Notes: generated from the sequence alone by a model not told the origin. A stretch of 24,000 nucleotides of DNA from Thermoleophilaceae bacterium (GCA_036378175.1 DASUWY010000049.1:1-24000); one strand, 5' to 3'. Shown: positions 1,610 to 11,598, numbered from the stretch's first letter. A program made the numbers and translations.

Positions 1610-2556
1610 TCCTCATCACGGGGGTAGCGGGGTTCGCCGGGACCCACCTGGCTCGCCTGTGCGCGCAGCGCGGAATCGAGGTGGCGGGCCTCGGACGGCA
1701 TCCGCGGGTCGATCTGCCCGGCGTGTCGGTGTACGAACAGGTGGACCTCCACGACGGCCGCGCGGTGCGAGACGTGGTCTCGCGCCTCAAGCCCAAGCAG
1801 GTGGTGCACCTCGCGGCGCAGGCGTCGGTCGCCCGCTCATGGGAGACGCCCGGCGAGGTGATCTCCTCGAACGTCACCACGTCACTCAATCTGCTCGAGG
1901 CGGTGCGGCTCGAGGCACCGGACACCCTCGTGCTCGTGGCCTGCTCGGGCGAGGAGTACGGGCGCCCGCAGAGTCTTCCGGTGGACGAGAGCCATCCACT
2001 CTCGCCGCGTAACCCCTATGCCACGAGCAAGGCGATGGTGGACGTTCTCGCCGGCTCGTACGTGGAGATGCACGGCATGCGGGTGCTCCGCGCGCGGGCG
2101 TTCAACCACGCGGGGCCGGGCCAGTCGGACACCTACGTTGTGGCGCGCTTCGCCCGCCAGGTGGCGGAGGCCGAGGCCGCGAGGCCCGCCGACGGCCGCG
2201 CGGTGATCGTCACCGGCAACGTGGACGTGCGGCGCGACTTCTGCGACGTGCGCGACGTGGTGCGCGCGTACCTGGTGGCGCTCGAGCAGGCGGAGGCGGG
2301 CGTTTTCAACGTCTGCAGCGGGCGGGCCACGCGCGTGTCCGACATACTCTCCGGCCTTGCGGCGCACAGTCCCCTCGAACTGGAGTGCCGCGTAGACCCG
2401 TCCCTGCTGCGAGAGAACGAGGTGATGGAGATCAGGGGCTCCCATGAGAGGCTGACCGAGGTGACCGGCTGGCGGCCGGAGATCGACCTGAGCGACACGC
2501 TGCGCGACACCCTCGACTGGTGGCGCGAGCGGGTGGCCGCCGAGGTGGCGCGATGA
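1606..2556 (+). CDS. rmd: GDP-4-dehydro-6-deoxy-D-mannose reductase-like extended SDR (Rmd-like)
   Basis: GTG 1606 overlaps the upstream stop (GTGA). 316 aa with ILITGVAGFAG (GxxGxxG), HLAAQASV, CSGEEYG, YATSK (YxxxK), AFNHAGPGQS, VRRDFCDVRDVV and FNVCSG. It is colinear with my recollection of Rmd and sits directly upstream of gmd. The upstream 333 codons of track ORF 607..2556 are an out-of-frame shadow of the dehydrogenase. Confidence 0.7.
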   Translation: MILITGVAGFAGTHLARLCAQRGIEVAGLGRHPRVDLPGVSVYEQVDLHDGRAVRDVVSRLKPKQVVHLAAQASVARSWETPGEVISSNVTTSLNLLEAVRLEAPDTLVLVACSGEEYGRPQSLPVDESHPLSPRNPYATSKAMVDVLAGSYVEMHGMRVLRARAFNHAGPGQSDTYVVARFARQVAEAEAARPADGRAVIVTGNVDVRRDFCDVRDVVRAYLVALEQAEAGVFNVCSGRATRVSDILSGLAAHSPLELECRVDPSLLRENEVMEIRGSHERLTEVTGWRPEIDLSDTLRDTLDWWRERVAAEVAR

Positions 2557-4577
2557 GCTCCGAGCAGCGGCGCGCGCTCGTCACGGGCGTGACGGGCCAG
2601 GACGGCAGCTACCTCGCCGAGCTCCTGCTCGAGAAGGGCTACGAGGTGCACGGCATGGTGCGGCGCGCATCCACCGAGACCTTCCAGCGCCTTCAGCACA
2701 TCCGGGACCGCATCACCCTCCACACCGGCGACCTGCTCGACCAGCGCTCGCTCGGCGACGTGATGCGGGAGTGCGAGCCGCACGAGATCTACAACCTCGC
2801 GGCGATGTCGTTCGTGGCAGCGTCGTGGAACCAGCCGGTGCTCACGGCGGACTTCACCGGCGTGGGTGTGACGAGGATGCTCGAGGCAATGCGCGAGGCG
2901 GCCCCGGACGCCCGCTTCTACCAGGCGTCGTCCTCGGAGATGTTCGGCAAGGTGCGCGAGGTGCCGCAGACCGAGCAGACGCCGTTCTACCCGCGCAGCC
3001 CGTACGGCGTGGCGAAGGTGTACGGGCACTTCATCACGGTGAACTACCGCGAGTCGTATGACCTTTTTGCCTGCTCGGGAATCCTGTTCAACCACGAGTG
3101 CGTGTCTTCCAGCACGCCCCTCATGGTGCGCGAGAACGGCGTGTTCGCGATCAGGACGCCGGCGGACTTGGTGCCTTACCGGCGCAGGGGACCGAGCAGC
3201 CAGACCTTCGAGCCGAGCGGCTTGCTCGAGATCTGGGCAGGCGAGGACTGGACACGGGTCACGGCGATCACGGCCACCCGGCGCCGCCGCACCGATCCGG
3301 ACCACGAGCTGCTCAGCATCGAGACGCGTGGCGGGGTGGTGCAGGCAACTGCGCATCACACGATGCTCGATGCAACAGGGGAAGGAGTGCGGGCCGCGGA
3401 TGTCGAGGAGGGCGACGAGCTTTACGTAACCGACGAGCTTCCCGAGGCGCCGATCTGGACCGCGGTGACCAACGAGCTCGCCGAACTGCTCGGCCTTCTC
3501 GCCGCCGACGGGTTCGTCGCACGCGATGGCACCAGCATTTGCTTCACCAACAACGACGCCGCTCTTCGCATGCGCGTCGCGCAGCTCTGGTCGAAGACGT
3601 TCCTCGGCACGTCGCACGAATGGATGGGACGCACCGGCTGGACTGAGAACGCGCAGGTTGGGAAGCTCAACCTGAACGGCGGCGCGTCGCTCGCCCCGTG
3701 GCTGCGCGAGCAGCTCTACACCCCCACCGGTCACAAGCAGGTTCCGCCGATCATCCTCAACGCGGACTCGCCTTTGCAGGAGTACTTCCTCGAGGGCTAC
3801 TACGCCGGCGACGGCCTGAAGAGGGGCAAGGGCGAGAGCATCAAGACGAACAGCGCAGTGCTCGCTCAGGGGCTTGTATGCCTCTACCACTCGCTCGACC
3901 AACCCGCGTCCGTGTACGTGGAGCAGCGCGCCGGGAAGTGCTACTACCAGCTCAACCTCGCGTCGCGGGCGTCGGTCTACAGCGGCAAGGGCGCGCACCT
4001 GCGGAAGCCGCCGCAGGAGGTTCGACGCATCATCCCGGCGGAGGTCGACGACGACGAGTGGGTGTTCGACATCGAGACTGAGGCCGGGGTTTTCAACGCC
4101 GGTGTGGGCCGGCTTGTGGTGCACAACTCGCCGCGTCGCGGGCTGGAGTTCGTCACCCGCAAGGTCACCCACACAGCGGCCGCGATCAAGCTCGGCCTCG
4201 CCGATGAGCTCGCGCTCGGCAACATGGACGCACAGCGCGACTGGGGCTATGCCAAGGACTACGTCGAGGCGATGTGGATGATGCTCCAGCAGGACGAGCC
4301 GGACGACTACGTGATCGCCACCGGCGAGGCGCACAGCGTGCGCGAGCTGGTGGACATCGCCTTCGCCCACCTCGATCTCGACCCGGACGACTATGTGCGG
4401 ATCGATCCGCGCTTCATGCGTCCCGCCGAGGTGGACCACCTGATCGGCGACTACTCCAAGGCGAAGGAGAAGCTGGGCTGGGAGCCCCGCACGAGCTTCG
4501 AGGAGCTCGTGAAGCTCATGGTCGACTCCGACCTGGAGCTCCTGCGCAGCGGAGTGCCCACGCAGCAGGCGGGTTGA
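2553..4577 (+). CDS. gmd: GDP-mannose 4,6-dehydratase precursor carrying an in-frame intein (182-aa N-extein + 343-aa intein + 149-aa C-extein)
   Basis: ATG 2553 overlaps the rmd stop (ATGA). N-extein motifs: ALVTGVTGQDGSYLAELLLEKGYEVHG, FYQASSSEMFG, SPYGVAKVYG, GILFNHE. C-extein motifs: SPRRGLEFVTRKVT, LGNMDAQRDWGYAKDYVEAMWMMLQ, DYVIATGE. Spliced length is 331 aa, which is typical for Gmd. Confidence 0.92.
   Translation: MSSEQRRALVTGVTGQDGSYLAELLLEKGYEVHGMVRRASTETFQRLQHIRDRITLHTGDLLDQRSLGDVMRECEPHEIYNLAAMSFVAASWNQPVLTADFTGVGVTRMLEAMREAAPDARFYQASSSEMFGKVREVPQTEQTPFYPRSPYGVAKVYGHFITVNYRESYDLFACSGILFNHECVSSSTPLMVRENGVFAIRTPADLVPYRRRGPSSQTFEPSGLLEIWAGEDWTRVTAITATRRRRTDPDHELLSIETRGGVVQATAHHTMLDATGEGVRAADVEEGDELYVTDELPEAPIWTAVTNELAELLGLLAADGFVARDGTSICFTNNDAALRMRVAQLWSKTFLGTSHEWMGRTGWTENAQVGKLNLNGGASLAPWLREQLYTPTGHKQVPPIILNADSPLQEYFLEGYYAGDGLKRGKGESIKTNSAVLAQGLVCLYHSLDQPASVYVEQRAGKCYYQLNLASRASVYSGKGAHLRKPPQEVRRIIPAEVDDDEWVFDIETEAGVFNAGVGRLVVHNSPRRGLEFVTRKVTHTAAAIKLGLADELALGNMDAQRDWGYAKDYVEAMWMMLQQDEPDDYVIATGEAHSVRELVDIAFAHLDLDPDDYVRIDPRFMRPAEVDHLIGDYSKAKEKLGWEPRTSFEELVKLMVDSDLELLRSGVPTQQAG
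3099..4127 (+). mobile_element. LAGLIDADG-type (class 1) intein inserted in gmd between NHE and SPRRG
   Basis: Starts with Cys1 (CVSSSTPLMV, block A). Block B TxxH is present as ATAHHTM. Two LAGLIDADG motifs: LGLLAADG at 3489-3512 and FLEGYYAGDG at 3786-3815. Blocks F/G are WVFDIETEAGVFNAGVGRLVVHN, ending His-Asn, followed by Ser+1 (4128). Length is 1029 nt, in frame. Confidence 0.9.
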
Positions 4578-8355: not shown

Positions 8356-8392
8356 GGTGCCGCCACGCACCGCCGGCGTTAGGTTGCATCTC

Positions 8393-9190
8393 ATGCCAGA
8401 GGTCGCAGAGAGGCCGCAGATCGGATCGCTTCTACGTGACTGGCGCGAGCGCCGGCGCATGAGTCAGCTCGACCTCGCCCTCGGCGCGGGCGTGTCGGCG
8501 CGTCACGTGAGCTTCATCGAGACCGGCCGCTCGCGCCCGAGCGCCGAGATGGTGGTGCAGCTCGCCGAGCACCTCGACGTGCCGCTGCGCGACCGCAACG
8601 CGCTGCTGCTCGCGGCCGGGTATGCGCCCGCATACGGGCAGCGCGACCTGGCGGAGCCGGAGATGGGTCCGGTGCGCGAGGCGATCGACCGGGTGCTGCG
8701 CGGTCACGAGCCCTATCCGGCGGTGGTGGTGGATCGGCACTGGGGACTCGTGGCTGCCAACCGCACTGTGCCGCTGCTCACGGAGGGCGCCGCGGAGCAT
8801 CTGCTCGAGCCGCCGGCAAACGTGCTCCGCCTCGCACTCCACCCGGAGGGCATAGCGCCGCGGATCGTGAACCTGGGCGAGTGGCGCGCTCACCTGCTCG
8901 ACCGCCTCGGCCGCCAGGCGGTGGCGAGCGGCGACCCCGCGCTGTTCGCGCTCCACGACGAGCTTGCGAGCTACCCGGGCGGCGGCGAGGGCCACACGGT
9001 GGACCTCGAGGCGAGCGAGATCGCAGTGCCGCTTCGCATCCGCGCGGATGGCGCCGAGCTCTCCTTCATCAGCACCGCCACCACCTTCGGCACGGCGGTG
9101 GATGTGACGGTGTCCGAGCTGTCGATCGAGTCCTTCTTCCCCGGCGACGACGGCACGGCTCGCTTCCTGCAGGAGACAAGCCTTACCTAG
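8393..9190 (+). CDS. XRE-family HTH regulator with MmyB-like ligand-binding domain
   Basis: LRDWRERRRMSQLDLALGAGVSARHVSFIETGRSRPSAEMVVQLAEHLDVPLRDRNALLLAAGYAP, then PYPAVVVDRHWGLVAAN. This is the typical MmyB-family layout. A -10-like TAGGTT (8380-8385) lies 7 nt before ATG 8393, suggesting a leaderless start. Alternative start GTG 8357. Confidence 0.8.
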   Translation: MPEVAERPQIGSLLRDWRERRRMSQLDLALGAGVSARHVSFIETGRSRPSAEMVVQLAEHLDVPLRDRNALLLAAGYAPAYGQRDLAEPEMGPVREAIDRVLRGHEPYPAVVVDRHWGLVAANRTVPLLTEGAAEHLLEPPANVLRLALHPEGIAPRIVNLGEWRAHLLDRLGRQAVASGDPALFALHDELASYPGGGEGHTVDLEASEIAVPLRIRADGAELSFISTATTFGTAVDVTVSELSIESFFPGDDGTARFLQETSLT

Positions 9191-10056
9191 GCGCGATGCG
9201 GCGCCGACGCGGTGACCAGCTCGGCCACCGCCTCGAGCGGCCCGGAGCGCAGCCGCTCAGCGCCCACGTGCTCGGCGAGCGCATCGTCGGCCCCGGCGCC
9301 GGCCAGGAACACGTTTCGCTCCTTGGCCAGGGTCGCAAGCCGCCGCGCCACGCTGTGGAGCGGCTCAGGCGAGAGGGCGGCCACCACAACGGCATCCGGC
9401 TCGAGCTGCGCGCTCGCCGCGGCCAGCGTGTCGATAGGCGTGTCGGCGCCGAGGAAGGTGATGCGCCAGCCGATGCCACGAAGCGCGATGCCGAAGGCCA
9501 CGAGGCCAAGGTCATGCCGCTCACCAGGGGCGCACGCGAGCAGGGCGAGCGGTCCGACCCCGCGGTCCCAGCCGCGCGCGAGGGCCAGCAGCCGCTCCCG
9601 CAGGAGGGTGGATGCGAAGTGCTCCTGGGCCACGGAGGCGTCGCCGCTGCCCCAGCGGTCGCCGAGCAGGCGGAGGTAGGGCAGCACCGCCTCGCGCAGC
9701 AGCGTCTCGACGGTGAAGTCCGCCACCAGCCGGTCGAACGCCGCCTGGGCGCGCGCATTGTCGAATGCGTCGAGCGATGCCCATAGCTCTGCGGCATGGT
9801 CGGCCGCGCCGTCGCCGGGGGGCGCCGCCGCCCCGCTTCGAGCCAGGCCGGCCGCCTCGGCGGCGGACAGGCCCTGCGCGATGTGCGCCCGCATCGCCTG
9901 CACACGGGCGAGGTCGTCCTCCGAGTAGAGCCGGTAGCCCGAGGCGGTGCGCGCCGGCTCGAGCAGCCCGTAGCGGCGCTCCCACGCTCGCAGGACGTCG
10001 GCGCTCACCCCCGCCCGCCGAGAAAGCTCCCCTATGCGCAGCCGGGCCTCTTCCAT
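9187..10056 (-). CDS. litR: MerR-family regulator with cobalamin-binding domain, CarH/LitR-type (AdoB12-dependent photoreceptor-like)
   Basis: 289 aa. MerR HTH: LRIGELSRRAGVSADVLRAWERRYGLLEPARTASGYRLYSEDDL. Wx9EH motif: W135-GSGDASVAQ-E145-H146 (9619-9654). B12 lower-ligand motif ExHxxG: E179-R-H181-D-L-G (9505-9522), followed by GWRITFLGADTP. A -10-like TATACT (10064-10069, minus) lies 7 nt before the ATG. Confidence 0.85.
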   Translation of the reverse strand: MEEARLRIGELSRRAGVSADVLRAWERRYGLLEPARTASGYRLYSEDDLARVQAMRAHIAQGLSAAEAAGLARSGAAAPPGDGAADHAAELWASLDAFDNARAQAAFDRLVADFTVETLLREAVLPYLRLLGDRWGSGDASVAQEHFASTLLRERLLALARGWDRGVGPLALLACAPGERHDLGLVAFGIALRGIGWRITFLGADTPIDTLAAASAQLEPDAVVVAALSPEPLHSVARRLATLAKERNVFLAGAGADDALAEHVGAERLRSGPLEAVAELVTASAPHRA

Positions 10057-10063
10057 TGGGCGG

Positions 10064-10092
10064 AGTATAGACCTTAGACGAATTTTAGACAA
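10064..10092 (-). promoter_or_regulatory. putative litR promoter (leaderless): -35 TTGTCT, 17-nt spacer, -10 TATACT
   Basis: On the minus strand, TTGTCT is the complement of 10087-10092 and TATACT is the complement of 10064-10069. ATG 10056 lies 7 nt downstream of the -10. Confidence 0.5.
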
Positions 10093-10103
10093 ACTCTTGA
10101 CAC
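10071..10103. promoter_or_regulatory. three tandem 11-bp-phased direct repeats T(A/T)GAC(A/G): candidate CarH/LitR operator
   Basis: TAGACG 10075-10080, TAGACA 10086-10091, TTGACA 10097-10102, with exactly 11-bp spacing. An extra off-phase TAGAC lies at 10068-10072. The repeats overlap both -35 boxes. Confidence 0.5.
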
Positions 10104-10126
10104 AGGGCGAGAATGTCGCCTATTCT
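10097..10126 (+). promoter_or_regulatory. putative promoter of the FAS1-heliorhodopsin operon: -35 TTGACA, 18-nt spacer, -10 TATTCT
   Basis: Consensus -35 at 10097-10102. TANNNT-type -10 at 10121-10126. The region is AT-richer than its surroundings. Confidence 0.55.
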
Positions 10127-10131
10127 GTCGC

Positions 10132-10147
10132 AACCCTGTCCAGGGTT
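10132..10147 (+). promoter_or_regulatory. perfect palindrome AACCCTG-TC-CAGGGTT at the predicted transcription start / 5' UTR
   Basis: Read directly from the sequence. It lies 6 nt downstream of the -10. It could be a 5' stem-loop or a second operator. Confidence 0.35.
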
Positions 10148-10177
10148 TGTTCATTCCCGTCCCACAAGGAGCACCCC

Positions 10178-10702
10178 GTGACCACCTCGATCCTCCGCAA
10201 GCGATCCGTCGCCACGCTCGTCGCCGGCGCGGCGCTCACCGCCACGGTGGCCGCACCGGTTGCGGCCTCGCCCGCGGCGGGGCCGGCCGCCAAGCGCACC
10301 AACATCGTGAACACCGCCGTGAAGGCCGGCCAGTTCAAGACGCTCGTCGCGCTGGTGAAGCGCGCCGGGCTCGCGAAGACGCTGTCGGCCGGGGGCCCGT
10401 ACACCGTGTTCGCCCCCACGGATGCCGCCTTCAAGAAGGTCCCCAAGAGCACGCTGAACGCTCTCCTCAAGGATCGCGCGAAGCTGCGCGCCGTTCTCCT
10501 GTACCACGTGGCCAAGGGCCGGCTGACCTCGAAGAAGGTCGTGAAGCTCAAGGCCGTGAAGACGCTGAACGGCCAGTCGCTGAGCGTGCGTGCGCGCAGC
10601 GGCGGCGTGTTCGTGGGCGGCGCGAGGGTGACCACGCCCGACGTGCGCGCCTCGAACGGCGTGATCCACGTGATCAACAGGGTGCTGGTGCCCCAGAGCT
10701 AG
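10178..10702 (+). CDS. secreted fasciclin (FAS1) domain protein
   Basis: GTG start with SD AAGGAG (10166-10171, 6-nt spacer). Signal peptide: RKRSVATLVAGAALTATVAAPVAA. FAS1 motifs: IVNTAVKAGQFKTLVALV, YTVFAPTDAAF, LLYHV, NGVIHVINRVLVP. 174 aa. Confidence 0.85.
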   Translation: MTTSILRKRSVATLVAGAALTATVAAPVAASPAAGPAAKRTNIVNTAVKAGQFKTLVALVKRAGLAKTLSAGGPYTVFAPTDAAFKKVPKSTLNALLKDRAKLRAVLLYHVAKGRLTSKKVVKLKAVKTLNGQSLSVRARSGGVFVGGARVTTPDVRASNGVIHVINRVLVPQS

Positions 10703-10720
10703 CCGGTCGAACGACCGGCT
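10701..10720 (+). terminator. GC-rich hairpin overlapping the FAS1 stop codon (possible attenuator or processing site; no U-tract)
   Basis: AGCCGGTCG-AA-CGACCGGCT. Effectively a 7-8 bp stem with a GAAC loop, followed by CTCGCC rather than a T run. Confidence 0.25.
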
Positions 10721-10788
10721 CTCGCCGAGCGCGCCCGGCGCGGCATGCCCCGTGCCGTGCCGGGCTCAGCTCGGCCCCCCTACACACG

Positions 10789-11598
10789 ATGACCGCCACC
10801 ACTGAACTTCCGAACGGCAGCCCGACGGCAACCCGCTCGCGCTTCGCGCGCCTGCGGGCCTTCAACCTGACGATGGGCGGGCTGCACCTCGCCCAGGGCC
10901 TGGCGATGCTCGCGCTCGCCACGTCCTTTGCGCTGCCCGTCACCTCCTCGTTCCTCGAAATGAGTGGAACCACCGGCAAGCTCGAGCCCGACCTGCAGGA
11001 GCTGCTCACCATCCGGCTTGCCCCGCTCGTGGCCGCGTTCCTCTTCATCTCCGCGGTCGCGCACCTCACGCTGAGCCTGCCGCGCGTGTACGACTGGTAC
11101 CTCGCGAACCTGCGCCGCGGCGTGAACTACGCCCGCTGGGCCGAGTACTCCGTCTCCTCCTCGGTGATGATCGTGGTGATCGCGATGCTCGTGGGCATTT
11201 ACGACATCGCGGCGCTGATCCTGCTGTTCGCACTCAACGCCACGATGATCCTGTTCGGCTGGCTGATGGAACTGCTGAATCAGCACACCCGCCAGACGAA
11301 CTGGCTGCCGTTCTGGTTCGGCAGCTTCGCCGGCGCGGTGCCGTGGATCGCGATCGGCATCTATCTCTTCGGCGCCGGCTCCGGCGGGTCCGGCGGCCCG
11401 CCCACGTTCGTCTACGTGATCTACGGATCGCTGTTCGTCTTCTTCAACGTGTTCGCGATCAACATGCTGCTTCAGTACAAGCGGGTCGGCCGTTGGCGCG
11501 ACTACCTGTTCGGCGAGCGGGTGTACATCCTGCTCAGCCTGACTGCCAAGTCCGCGCTTGCCTGGCAGGTGTTCGCCGGCACGCTGCGGCCGGTGTAG
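10789..11598 (+). CDS. heliorhodopsin (retinal-binding 7-TM protein, HeR family)
   Basis: 269 aa, colinear with my recollection of heliorhodopsin 48C12. Motifs: GGLHLAQGLAMLALATSFALP (His33), ISAVAHL (His92), RWAEYSVSSSVMIV (Glu119, codon 11143-11145, counterion position), MILFGWLME, LPFWFGSFAGAVPWI, FVYVIYGSLFVFFN, GERVYILLSLTAKSALAWQVFAGTL. The last contains Lys254 (codon 11548-11550) at the Schiff-base position. Confidence 0.92.
   Translation: MTATTELPNGSPTATRSRFARLRAFNLTMGGLHLAQGLAMLALATSFALPVTSSFLEMSGTTGKLEPDLQELLTIRLAPLVAAFLFISAVAHLTLSLPRVYDWYLANLRRGVNYARWAEYSVSSSVMIVVIAMLVGIYDIAALILLFALNATMILFGWLMELLNQHTRQTNWLPFWFGSFAGAVPWIAIGIYLFGAGSGGSGGPPTFVYVIYGSLFVFFNVFAINMLLQYKRVGRWRDYLFGERVYILLSLTAKSALAWQVFAGTLRPV

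Follow-up and report, generated by a model that had tools for sequence, protein, structure and literature searches.

Which signals control the expression of a heliorhodopsin, and which other proteins might it work with? To our knowledge heliorhodopsins are widespread in monoderm microbes, functions have been assigned to a few of them case by case, and nothing has been described about the control of their expression. We addressed both questions in a 24,000-nucleotide stretch of DNA from a Thermoleophilaceae bacterium (GCA_036378175.1 DASUWY010000049.1:1-24000; ~70% G+C), which as a whole is called the window below. In it a gene for a CarH/LitR-type regulator (litR) is divergent from genes for a fasciclin protein (FAS1) and a heliorhodopsin (HeR). 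Analysis of the three proteins, of the DNA between their genes and of related loci suggests that the locus is probably a light-response unit of LitR, with FAS1 as its core member and HeR as a swappable cargo gene expressed by read-through.

The LitR protein has an N-terminal MerR-type winged-helix domain, which aligns to the DNA-binding domain of Thermus CarH (TtCarH), joined to an adenosylcobalamin (AdoB12)-binding module (Pfam MerR_1 6.8e-17, MerR 2.2e-13, B12-binding_2 (PF02607) 1.4e-9, B12-binding (PF02310) 1e-8). The TtCarH structure 5C8D matched LitR over its full length (E = 1.3e-35, with 5C8D residues 29-286 aligned). A preliminary description of the window had assigned to LitR both signatures of AdoB12-dependent photoreceptors, at W135, E145-H146 and H181, and these assignments were confirmed to the residue: numbered from the ATG at 10056, Wx9EH is W135-GSGDASVAQ-E145-H146 and ExHxxG is E179-R-H181-D-L-G184. 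The Wx9EH motif caps the adenosyl group and is absent from B12-independent CarA, whilst the cobalamin motif of class I CarH/LitR proteins reads ExHx2G-x41-SxV/T-x22-27-GG. Among the 120 closest LitR homologues Wx9EH was found in all 120 and ExHxxG in 115. By all sequence criteria other than its degenerate distal cobalamin elements, which are weighed below, LitR belongs to class I, and it is predicted to bind B12 and to act in a light-dependent manner. A protein 100% identical to LitR carries the NCBI label of a Thermoleophilaceae metagenome-assembled genome. A gene for an MmyB-like helix-turn-helix regulator (window 8357-9190, + strand) converges on litR, its stop overlapping the litR 3′ end by 4 bp.

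Judged by their sequences, the two proteins encoded on the opposite strand appear to be ordinary members of their families. FAS1 (Pfam Fasciclin, 9.4e-42, profile positions 2-123 of 123) has a ribosome-binding site, AAGGAG, at 10165-10170, and its N-terminus is a basic-hydrophobic segment ending VAA/SP, which suggests a signal peptide and export. Its relatives in the PDB include Rhodobacter Fdp (1W7D, 1.4e-29) and the algal protein AstaP (8C18, 3.6e-14), and it is nearer to the adhesion-type proteins Fdp and TGFBIp than to AstaP. HeR (Pfam Heliorhodopsin, PF18761, 3e-101, profile positions 1-242 of 242) matched the heliorhodopsins TaHeR (6IS6, 2e-70) and 48C12 (3e-65). The residues H33, H92, E119 and K254, previously described as retained, are all present, in conserved columns or motifs of the solved heliorhodopsins: E119 aligns to the column mutated from E to D in the 7CLJ TaHeR chain, H33 lies within a conserved N-terminal His motif and K254 within the conserved AKSALAWQ motif. 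On the basis of the TaHeR residue numbers in the literature, we take these to be the Schiff-base lysine of helix 7, the counterion glutamate of helix 3 and the two histidines. An Arg-rich N-terminal tail fits a cytoplasmic N-terminus, and both inverted topology and retinal binding are expected of HeR from its family.

The 121-bp spacer between litR and FAS1 contains two divergent promoters, the one directed at FAS1 being strong and of the sigma-70 type, and two repeat arrays (Table 1), and three promoter-like sites were found in this region where 0.1 were expected. The -10 of P_FAS1 is kept as TAnnnT in most aligned relatives, and the GAGTATA block at the putative litR promoter is likewise conserved. 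As the litR -10 lies ~8 nt from the litR ATG, a leaderless mRNA, or one with a very short leader, is suggested. The third repeat of the forward array doubles as the -35 of P_FAS1, and the second overlaps that of P_litR. The reverse array is built of reverse complements of the forward T(A/G)GACA unit and spans from the edge of the -10 to about +25, and the 23-bp spacer between the two arrays ends in the -10.

Table 1. Positions in the window of the regulator gene, its control region, the divergent genes and their junction
Feature	Position	Strand	Details	Basis
litR/carH-type gene	9187..10056	-	MerR winged helix-turn-helix plus predicted AdoB12-binding module; 289 aa	Pfam, 5C8D match, Wx9EH and ExHxxG
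Putative litR promoter (P_litR)	10064..10092	-	-35 TTGTCT (10092..10087), 17 nt, -10 TATACT (10069..10064)	Promoter scan
Putative operator, forward array	10075..10102	+	TAGACG (10075-80), TAGACA (10086-91), TTGACA (10097-102); 11-bp spacing	Conserved in relatives
FAS1 promoter (P_FAS1)	10097..10126	+	TTGACA, 18 nt, TATTCT	Promoter scan, 10/12 consensus match
Putative operator, reverse array	10126..10153	+	TGTCGC (10126-31), TGTCCA (10137-42), TGTTCA (10148-53); 11-bp spacing	Array scoring; inverted repeat I1
FAS1 gene	10178..10702	+	Single-domain FAS1 (fasciclin) protein, predicted secreted; 174 aa, GTG start	Pfam, ribosome-binding site, signal-like N-terminus
Tandem hairpins	10696..10775	+	Two GC-rich hairpins (10696-10723 and 10724-10775), no U-tract; terminator-like or attenuating	RNA fold
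HeR gene	10789..11598	+	Heliorhodopsin; 269 aa	Pfam, PDB matches, key residues

Relatives of the whole locus, from related uncultured bacteria, were reached through the LitR protein (Table 2). The forward-array pattern occurs once in the window, with 0 expected, and never arose in shuffled sequences; it was conserved in L163, L165, L167, L168, L170, L171, L172, L174 and L098. The full design of three plus three repeats was found in eight further loci (L163, L165/166, L167, L168/169, L170, L171, L172 and L174), with LitR 83-61% identical and spacers of 21-23 bp, whilst in L098 (LitR 50%) only the forward set and the promoter are kept. Reverse-array scores were 14-17 out of 18 in the window and in seven scored loci (LitR 65-83% identical), the probability of 14 or more at random positions of the window being ~1e-4. 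The arrays of L174 (LitR 61%), TGGACA/TAGACG/TTGACA followed by TGCCCA/TGTCCA/TGTCTA, were read by eye and are unscored. When the operators were aligned, the repeat cores formed the invariant columns, with the spacer and surrounding non-coding positions varying. The published CarH operator consists of tandem 11-bp repeats, three in Thermus or four in Bacillus, with the consensus nAnnTnnACAn and an overlap with the -35 (PMC8156234); the window operator agrees with it in its period of 11 bp, in the TnnACA half and in overlapping the -35. Because a conserved, 11-bp-spaced array overlaps the -35, -10 and start region of P_FAS1 as well as the putative litR -35, we consider it highly probable that LitR controls its divergent promoter, and the conservation of this putative operator is the main new evidence for such action.

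Two RNA-based candidates were also considered in this region. A palindrome at 10132-10147, flagged as terminator-like, was rejected as a 5′-untranslated RNA hairpin or attenuator: relatives keep its sequence and not its pairing, and it resolves into the 11-bp-spaced reverse repeats. No cobalamin riboswitch or other known RNA family was detected by Rfam at gathering thresholds across the whole window.

Table 2. Genes divergent from LitR in the loci reached through the LitR protein
Locus	LitR identity	Divergent genes, in order
Window (= L173)	100%	FAS1, HeR
L163	83%	FAS1, HeR
L164	83%	FAS1 (contig cut)
L165/166	80%	FAS1 alone
L167	73%	FAS1 (contig cut)
L168/169	71%	FAS1, DUF378, 50-aa open reading frame, DNA photolyase
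L172	67%	FAS1, M14 peptidase
L171	66%	HtaA-like protein, HeR fragment
L170	65%	FAS1, Na/H exchanger, second FAS1
L174	61%	FAS1, YbgA-like (DUF1722), UvdE

These loci also revealed what the regulator travels with. FAS1 was the companion of LitR in nine of ten distinct contexts and HeR in three (the window, L163 and L171), with the divergent LitR/FAS1 pair occurring without HeR in at least five (L165, L168, L170, L172 and L174). FAS1 identity fell in step with LitR identity across the loci (FAS1/LitR pairs of 84/83, 77/80, 75/71, ~68/66 and 54/61%), and the pair therefore appears to be inherited as a unit. FAS1 would be the constant target of LitR, and HeR one of several alternative genes placed behind FAS1. 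The photolyase and UV endonuclease of sister loci are classic light/UV functions and lend independent support to a light regulon, and the distribution of FAS1 argues that this protein itself has a light-related function at the cell surface. The statement that the window lacks crt and blh genes for retinal supply holds for its scanned open reading frames, which cover all but ~4.4 kb of the window; nor were any listed among the genes of the LitR-seeded loci (up to ~4-5 kb per side, contig permitting).

Some minor features recurred in the same loci. Genes of the SRPBCC/Polyketide_cyc2 type (START-like, hydrophobic-ligand-binding) lie on the far side of LitR in L170 (6385-6825), L171 (6029-6931) and L174 (6384-7531). 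A small DUF378 membrane protein is encoded in two putatively LitR-controlled operons, with HeR in L098 (953-1189) and with photolyase in L168 (4090-4332).

We then come to the junction between FAS1 and HeR, which had been called an operon. Its gene order and strand were confirmed, but the term needs qualification, as the 86-bp gap carries two very stable hairpins (-66.2 kcal/mol for the pair, z-score -7.2). The hairpins are conserved in L163 and in L001; in our own reading of the alignment, one C-G pair is replaced by U-A in a compensatory manner and one G-U pair by G-C. L001, whose HeR is 90% identical to that of the window, begins with the last codons of FAS1 and is by its sequence another FAS1-HeR junction, cut by the contig end. 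A homologous hairpin pair ends FAS1 in L165; no same-strand gene follows it there, and in that locus it must be a U-less terminator or a 3′ stabilizer. A promoter of HeR's own within the gap was rejected: no promoter-like site was found in the 86 bp by a consensus scan, which detects GC-rich actinobacterial promoters poorly, the distance from the foot of the hairpins to the HeR ATG is only 13 nt, too short for a promoter, and there is no well-placed TAnnnT. Downstream of HeR no terminator was detected, the fold being no better than shuffles (z = -0.04). On the simplest interpretation, a part of the transcripts started at P_FAS1 would read through into HeR, so that much FAS1 and little HeR would be made, and this read-through is the weakest link in the claim that HeR is light-gated. 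As a separate observation, 27 bp of the FAS1 3′ end (GTGCTGGTGCCCCAGAGCTAA...CTGGTGCCCCAGAGCTAG) are tandemly duplicated at this junction in L163 (~4355-4385) and L001 (1-50), a duplication absent from the window.

The locus was also viewed from the heliorhodopsin side, using 160 HeR-seeded loci (1.30 Mb) from two scans, one of genome contigs and one of metagenomes; no HeR in these scans was more than 69% identical to that of the window. The preliminary description had proposed counting FAS1 and B12-type MerR genes beside heliorhodopsin genes. When this was done, a LitR-like gene was found in eight of the 160 loci (L011, L043, L068, L072, L081, L085, L086 and L098) and FAS1 in seven (L011, L012, L021, L085, L086, L096 and L138). 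All eight LitR-like proteins have Wx9EH; the canonical [ED]xHxxG, the lower-ligand motif, is missing from the translated open reading frames of four of them (L086, L043, L068 and L081). Triads of LitR, FAS1 and HeR recur in loci with HeR 60-62% identical, one of them a Chloroflexia genome. L086 has the exact layout of the window, with LitR divergent from a two-domain FAS1 and then HeR; in L011, from Chloroflexia, LitR, a two-domain FAS1 and HeR are all on one strand; and in L085 a stand-alone B12-binding protein and a MerR-PAS gene are divergent from FAS1, FAS1, DUF4383 and HeR. In L098 the genes divergent from LitR encode DUF378, a DUF4397 protein whose N-terminus is signal-like, and HeR. The gap between FAS1 and HeR is 11 bp in L138, where no LitR was found in the preceding ~4.5 kb.

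Heliorhodopsins linked to LitR or FAS1 fall into at least five sequence clusters, so that the linkage is recurrent and not one inherited accident; a monophyletic heliorhodopsin clade of LitR/FAS1 type was rejected by distance clustering, as the linked proteins scatter over these clusters. If a few copies of each gene per genome are assumed, less than one chance hit would be expected in 1.3 Mb, an estimate made by assumption and not a computed background. Since the operator stands alone in the window against an expectation of zero and independent loci show the same arrangement of genes again, the arrangement is not due to chance.

Three further observations concern the HeR-seeded loci. The AT-rich LitR-FAS1 spacer of L086 contains, by eye, the pairs TGGACA-N5-TCGACT and TGGACA-N5-TGTGCA with 11-bp spacing (3673-3689 and 3826-3842), as well as a direct repeat, TTTACGAAATTC; the pairs suggest that similar half-sites may be used beyond the Thermoleophilia-like clade. 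In L085 (1697-3171, - strand) the fused LitR is replaced by a B12-binding protein that lacks a helix-turn-helix and retains Wx9EH, followed by the MerR-PAS gene; the light switch may exist there in a split or antirepressor-type form. An immediate neighbor of HeR that recurs in several loci is a DUF1295 membrane protein (steroid-5-alpha-reductase/ICMT-like), at 5825-6613 in L086, just downstream in L133, L126, L012 and L006, and nearby in L020, L021 and L038; a polyene or isoprenoid is a possible substrate.

Taken together, we propose that in the dark AdoB12-loaded LitR would oligomerize on both arrays and occlude the -35, -10 and start of P_FAS1 together with the -35 of P_litR. Two tetramers might be bound, a guess based on the three repeats per tetramer in Thermus. 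UV-to-green light would photolyse the Co-C bond and disassemble the LitR oligomer, and both promoters would fire. The main product made in the light would be Sec-exported FAS1, with a fraction of transcripts passing the terminator-like hairpins into HeR, which would be made at a lower level and in the light only. Within the lineage LitR and FAS1 would form the inherited core, and the gene behind FAS1 would be an exchangeable part of the response to light or UV (HeR, photolyase, UvdE with a YbgA-like protein, and others). The earlier proposal that LitR light-gates HeR is thus retained in part: LitR has the sequence signatures of an AdoB12 photoreceptor and a putative operator lies on P_FAS1, but HeR sits behind terminator-homologous hairpins and would need read-through. 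We judge co-induction of HeR with FAS1 to be slightly favored over its absence.

Several observations weigh against this model and were set against the alternatives. The operator repeats do not match the nAnnT half of the published CarH consensus. In the distal cobalamin motif of LitR, AAL (226-228) follows x41 where SxV/T is classic, and AGAG (252-255) follows x23 where GG is classic; TtCarH His132, which follows the Trp, is a Gly in LitR. This Ser-to-Ala and GG-to-AG change, with no His beside the Trp, would suit a B12-independent, CarA-like regulator or a sensor of B12 availability and not of light. Such a regulator is very improbable here, as the Wx9EH that CarA lacks is fully kept in LitR and does not vary across the clade, and the photolyase and UvdE cargo argue for light. 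SSL/SAL and AGxG predominate among the 120 closest homologues; AGxG is normal in this clade and the Ser-to-Ala change a minority variant. On the side of HeR, ~90% of the HeR-seeded loci have neither LitR nor FAS1, no Shine-Dalgarno sequence was found upstream of the window HeR, and, given the homology of the window hairpins to the FAS1 terminator of L165, HeR might receive little or no read-through. LitR could then control only FAS1 and itself, with HeR a neighbor that has its own light-independent expression and owes its place to a shared envelope localization or to insertion behind a terminator. The strength of the intervening hairpins (-66 kcal/mol), the 27-bp duplication seen in L163 and L001, a scar that suggests rearrangement of the junction, and the poor performance of the promoter scan on GC-rich actinobacterial DNA are all in keeping with this explanation. 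We nevertheless regard it as unlikely: the few nucleotides upstream of the HeR start leave no room for a promoter, and linkage of B12-type regulators to HeR recurs in at least five HeR clusters, including cases with small gaps or same-strand operons.

A further explanation, compatible with LitR control and differing from our model only in the role given to FAS1, is that FAS1, earlier proposed as a candidate partner or output, serves HeR as a dedicated partner outside the cell. It would be either a carrier that captures exogenous carotenoid or retinal and loads HeR through its lateral fenestration, or an output or docking protein, with the whole apparatus made only in the light via LitR. FAS1 does stand upstream of HeR in L085, L086, L011, L096, L012 and L138, the last with its short gap and no LitR nearby. 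The FAS1 fold of AstaP, which is induced by photooxidative stress, has a hydrophobic tunnel, shared by many FAS1 domains, that holds carotenoids (PMC10147662), its site being an α1-α2 "jaw" tunnel with AstaP-specific exit residues at AstaPo1 positions 111 and 138, and window FAS1 is a detectable relative of 8C18. A 2025 preprint proposes that heliorhodopsins take up exogenous xanthophylls from the outside, the entry being a fenestration for which six residues are named. All six positions are permissive in HeR (F175, S179, G182, F219, N220 and A223 by hand count from the alignment, the counterparts of 48C12 F162, C166, G169, F206, N207 and A210), a feature that does not discriminate, since it is present in 91% of heliorhodopsins according to the preprint. 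The lack of crt and blh in the scanned window and in the LitR-seeded gene tables would also suit a carrier. In contrast, the LitR/FAS1 pair does without HeR in the five or more contexts listed above, and L098 and L171 have LitR and HeR without FAS1, its place being taken by the DUF4397 or the HtaA-like protein. LitR is accompanied by FAS1 in 9/10 contexts and by HeR in 3/10, and the status of FAS1 as the partner of HeR does not follow from synteny. As regards a carrier role, a secreted, high-light-induced single-FAS1 protein of Synechocystis (P74615, "SynAstaP") bound no zeaxanthin, and the authors of the AstaP work state that sequence does not predict ligand binding (PMC10147662); the closeness of window FAS1 to adhesion-type Fdp and TGFBIp also counts against it. 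We therefore consider a dedicated partner unlikely. A related and still more tentative idea is polyene scavenging, in which a light-derepressed, secreted FAS1 carrier, a functional analogue of AstaP, would bind carotenoid or retinal from the environment and pass it to the membrane and, in loci with HeR, to the outward-accessible fenestration of HeR. HeR would then gain a chromophore and/or an antenna, FAS1 would be the first accessory protein assigned to a heliorhodopsin on the extracellular side, and the LitR regulon of these monoderm bacteria would supply polyene pigments without synthesis.

Returning to the LitR light-response unit with HeR as cargo, we compared it with known systems. LitR has the same domain order, Wx9EH and ExHxxG as Thermus CarH (5C8D/5C8E), Bacillus megaterium CarH and Streptomyces LitR. 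The locus shares with class I CarH/LitR systems the divergent layout of regulator and target, 11-bp repeats with a TnnACA core over a σA-type -35, and, in its sister loci, a photolyase target. It differs in its targets, which would be FAS1 and HeR and not carotenoid synthesis; in its operator, a head-to-head double array of three plus three repeats over ~79 bp where CarH operators are a single run of three or four; and in the unconserved nAnnT half, the SxV/T to AAL and GG to AG changes and the absence of TtCarH His132. Described partner systems of heliorhodopsins involve glutamine synthetase, photolyase and the ABC transporter OmrDE (PMC9529153, PMC9769723, PMC11109279). As in the window, HeR lies beside the candidate partner, but those partners, which HeR contacts via its intracellular loops, are either cytoplasmic or enzymes and transporters of the membrane, whereas the protein encoded beside HeR here is predicted to be secreted. 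A "MerR family transcriptional regulator" is among ten frequent operon neighbors of heliorhodopsins, listed without a B12 or light connection (PMC11109279); here this neighbor is recognized as a predicted B12 photoreceptor with an operator. AstaP (8C18) and SynAstaP, like FAS1, are single FAS1 domains behind a signal peptide and are induced by high light or photooxidative stress, which for FAS1 is predicted via LitR; carotenoid binding has been shown for the algal proteins only. In PmlR2-PmSB-LOV a LitR-family regulator is likewise coupled to a second, chemically different photoreceptor, but there PmSB-LOV signals to the B12-less class II LitR PmlR2 (PMC9758184), whereas the B12-type LitR of the window would be the sensor itself and HeR its putative target.

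In the literature searched we found no paper treating fasciclin and heliorhodopsin together, no substantive link of heliorhodopsin to CarH, LitR or cobalamin, and no link of CarH/LitR to a fasciclin or microbial rhodopsin gene, in agreement with the earlier impression that a LitR-FAS1-HeR system is undescribed. What is new is the wiring: a predicted B12 photoreceptor over a fasciclin-HeR unit, the central place of FAS1 among the putative LitR targets of the lineage, and the operator of three plus three repeats, a double-array design unreported so far. The locus gives HeR a concrete regulatory input, a predicted B12 photoreceptor with a defined putative operator, and it would widen the CarH/LitR regulon past carotenoid synthesis to a predicted secreted fasciclin that is its most constant target in this lineage. 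The placing of FAS1 beside HeR is timely in view of the preprint on capture of exogenous carotenoids by heliorhodopsins and of the FAS1 carotenoid carriers of algae (PMC10147662), and the light-response gene set offers a lead on what heliorhodopsins work with.

Other genes neighboring the locus encode an MFS transporter, GFA and LysE proteins and cell-envelope glycosylation functions, in addition to the MmyB-like regulator. Further upstream (window 2520-4577, + strand) lies an open reading frame of 685 aa for a GDP-mannose 4,6-dehydratase, whose GDP_Man_Dehyd match is split around a LAGLIDADG_3 homing-endonuclease insert, and which looks like an intein-containing Gmd.

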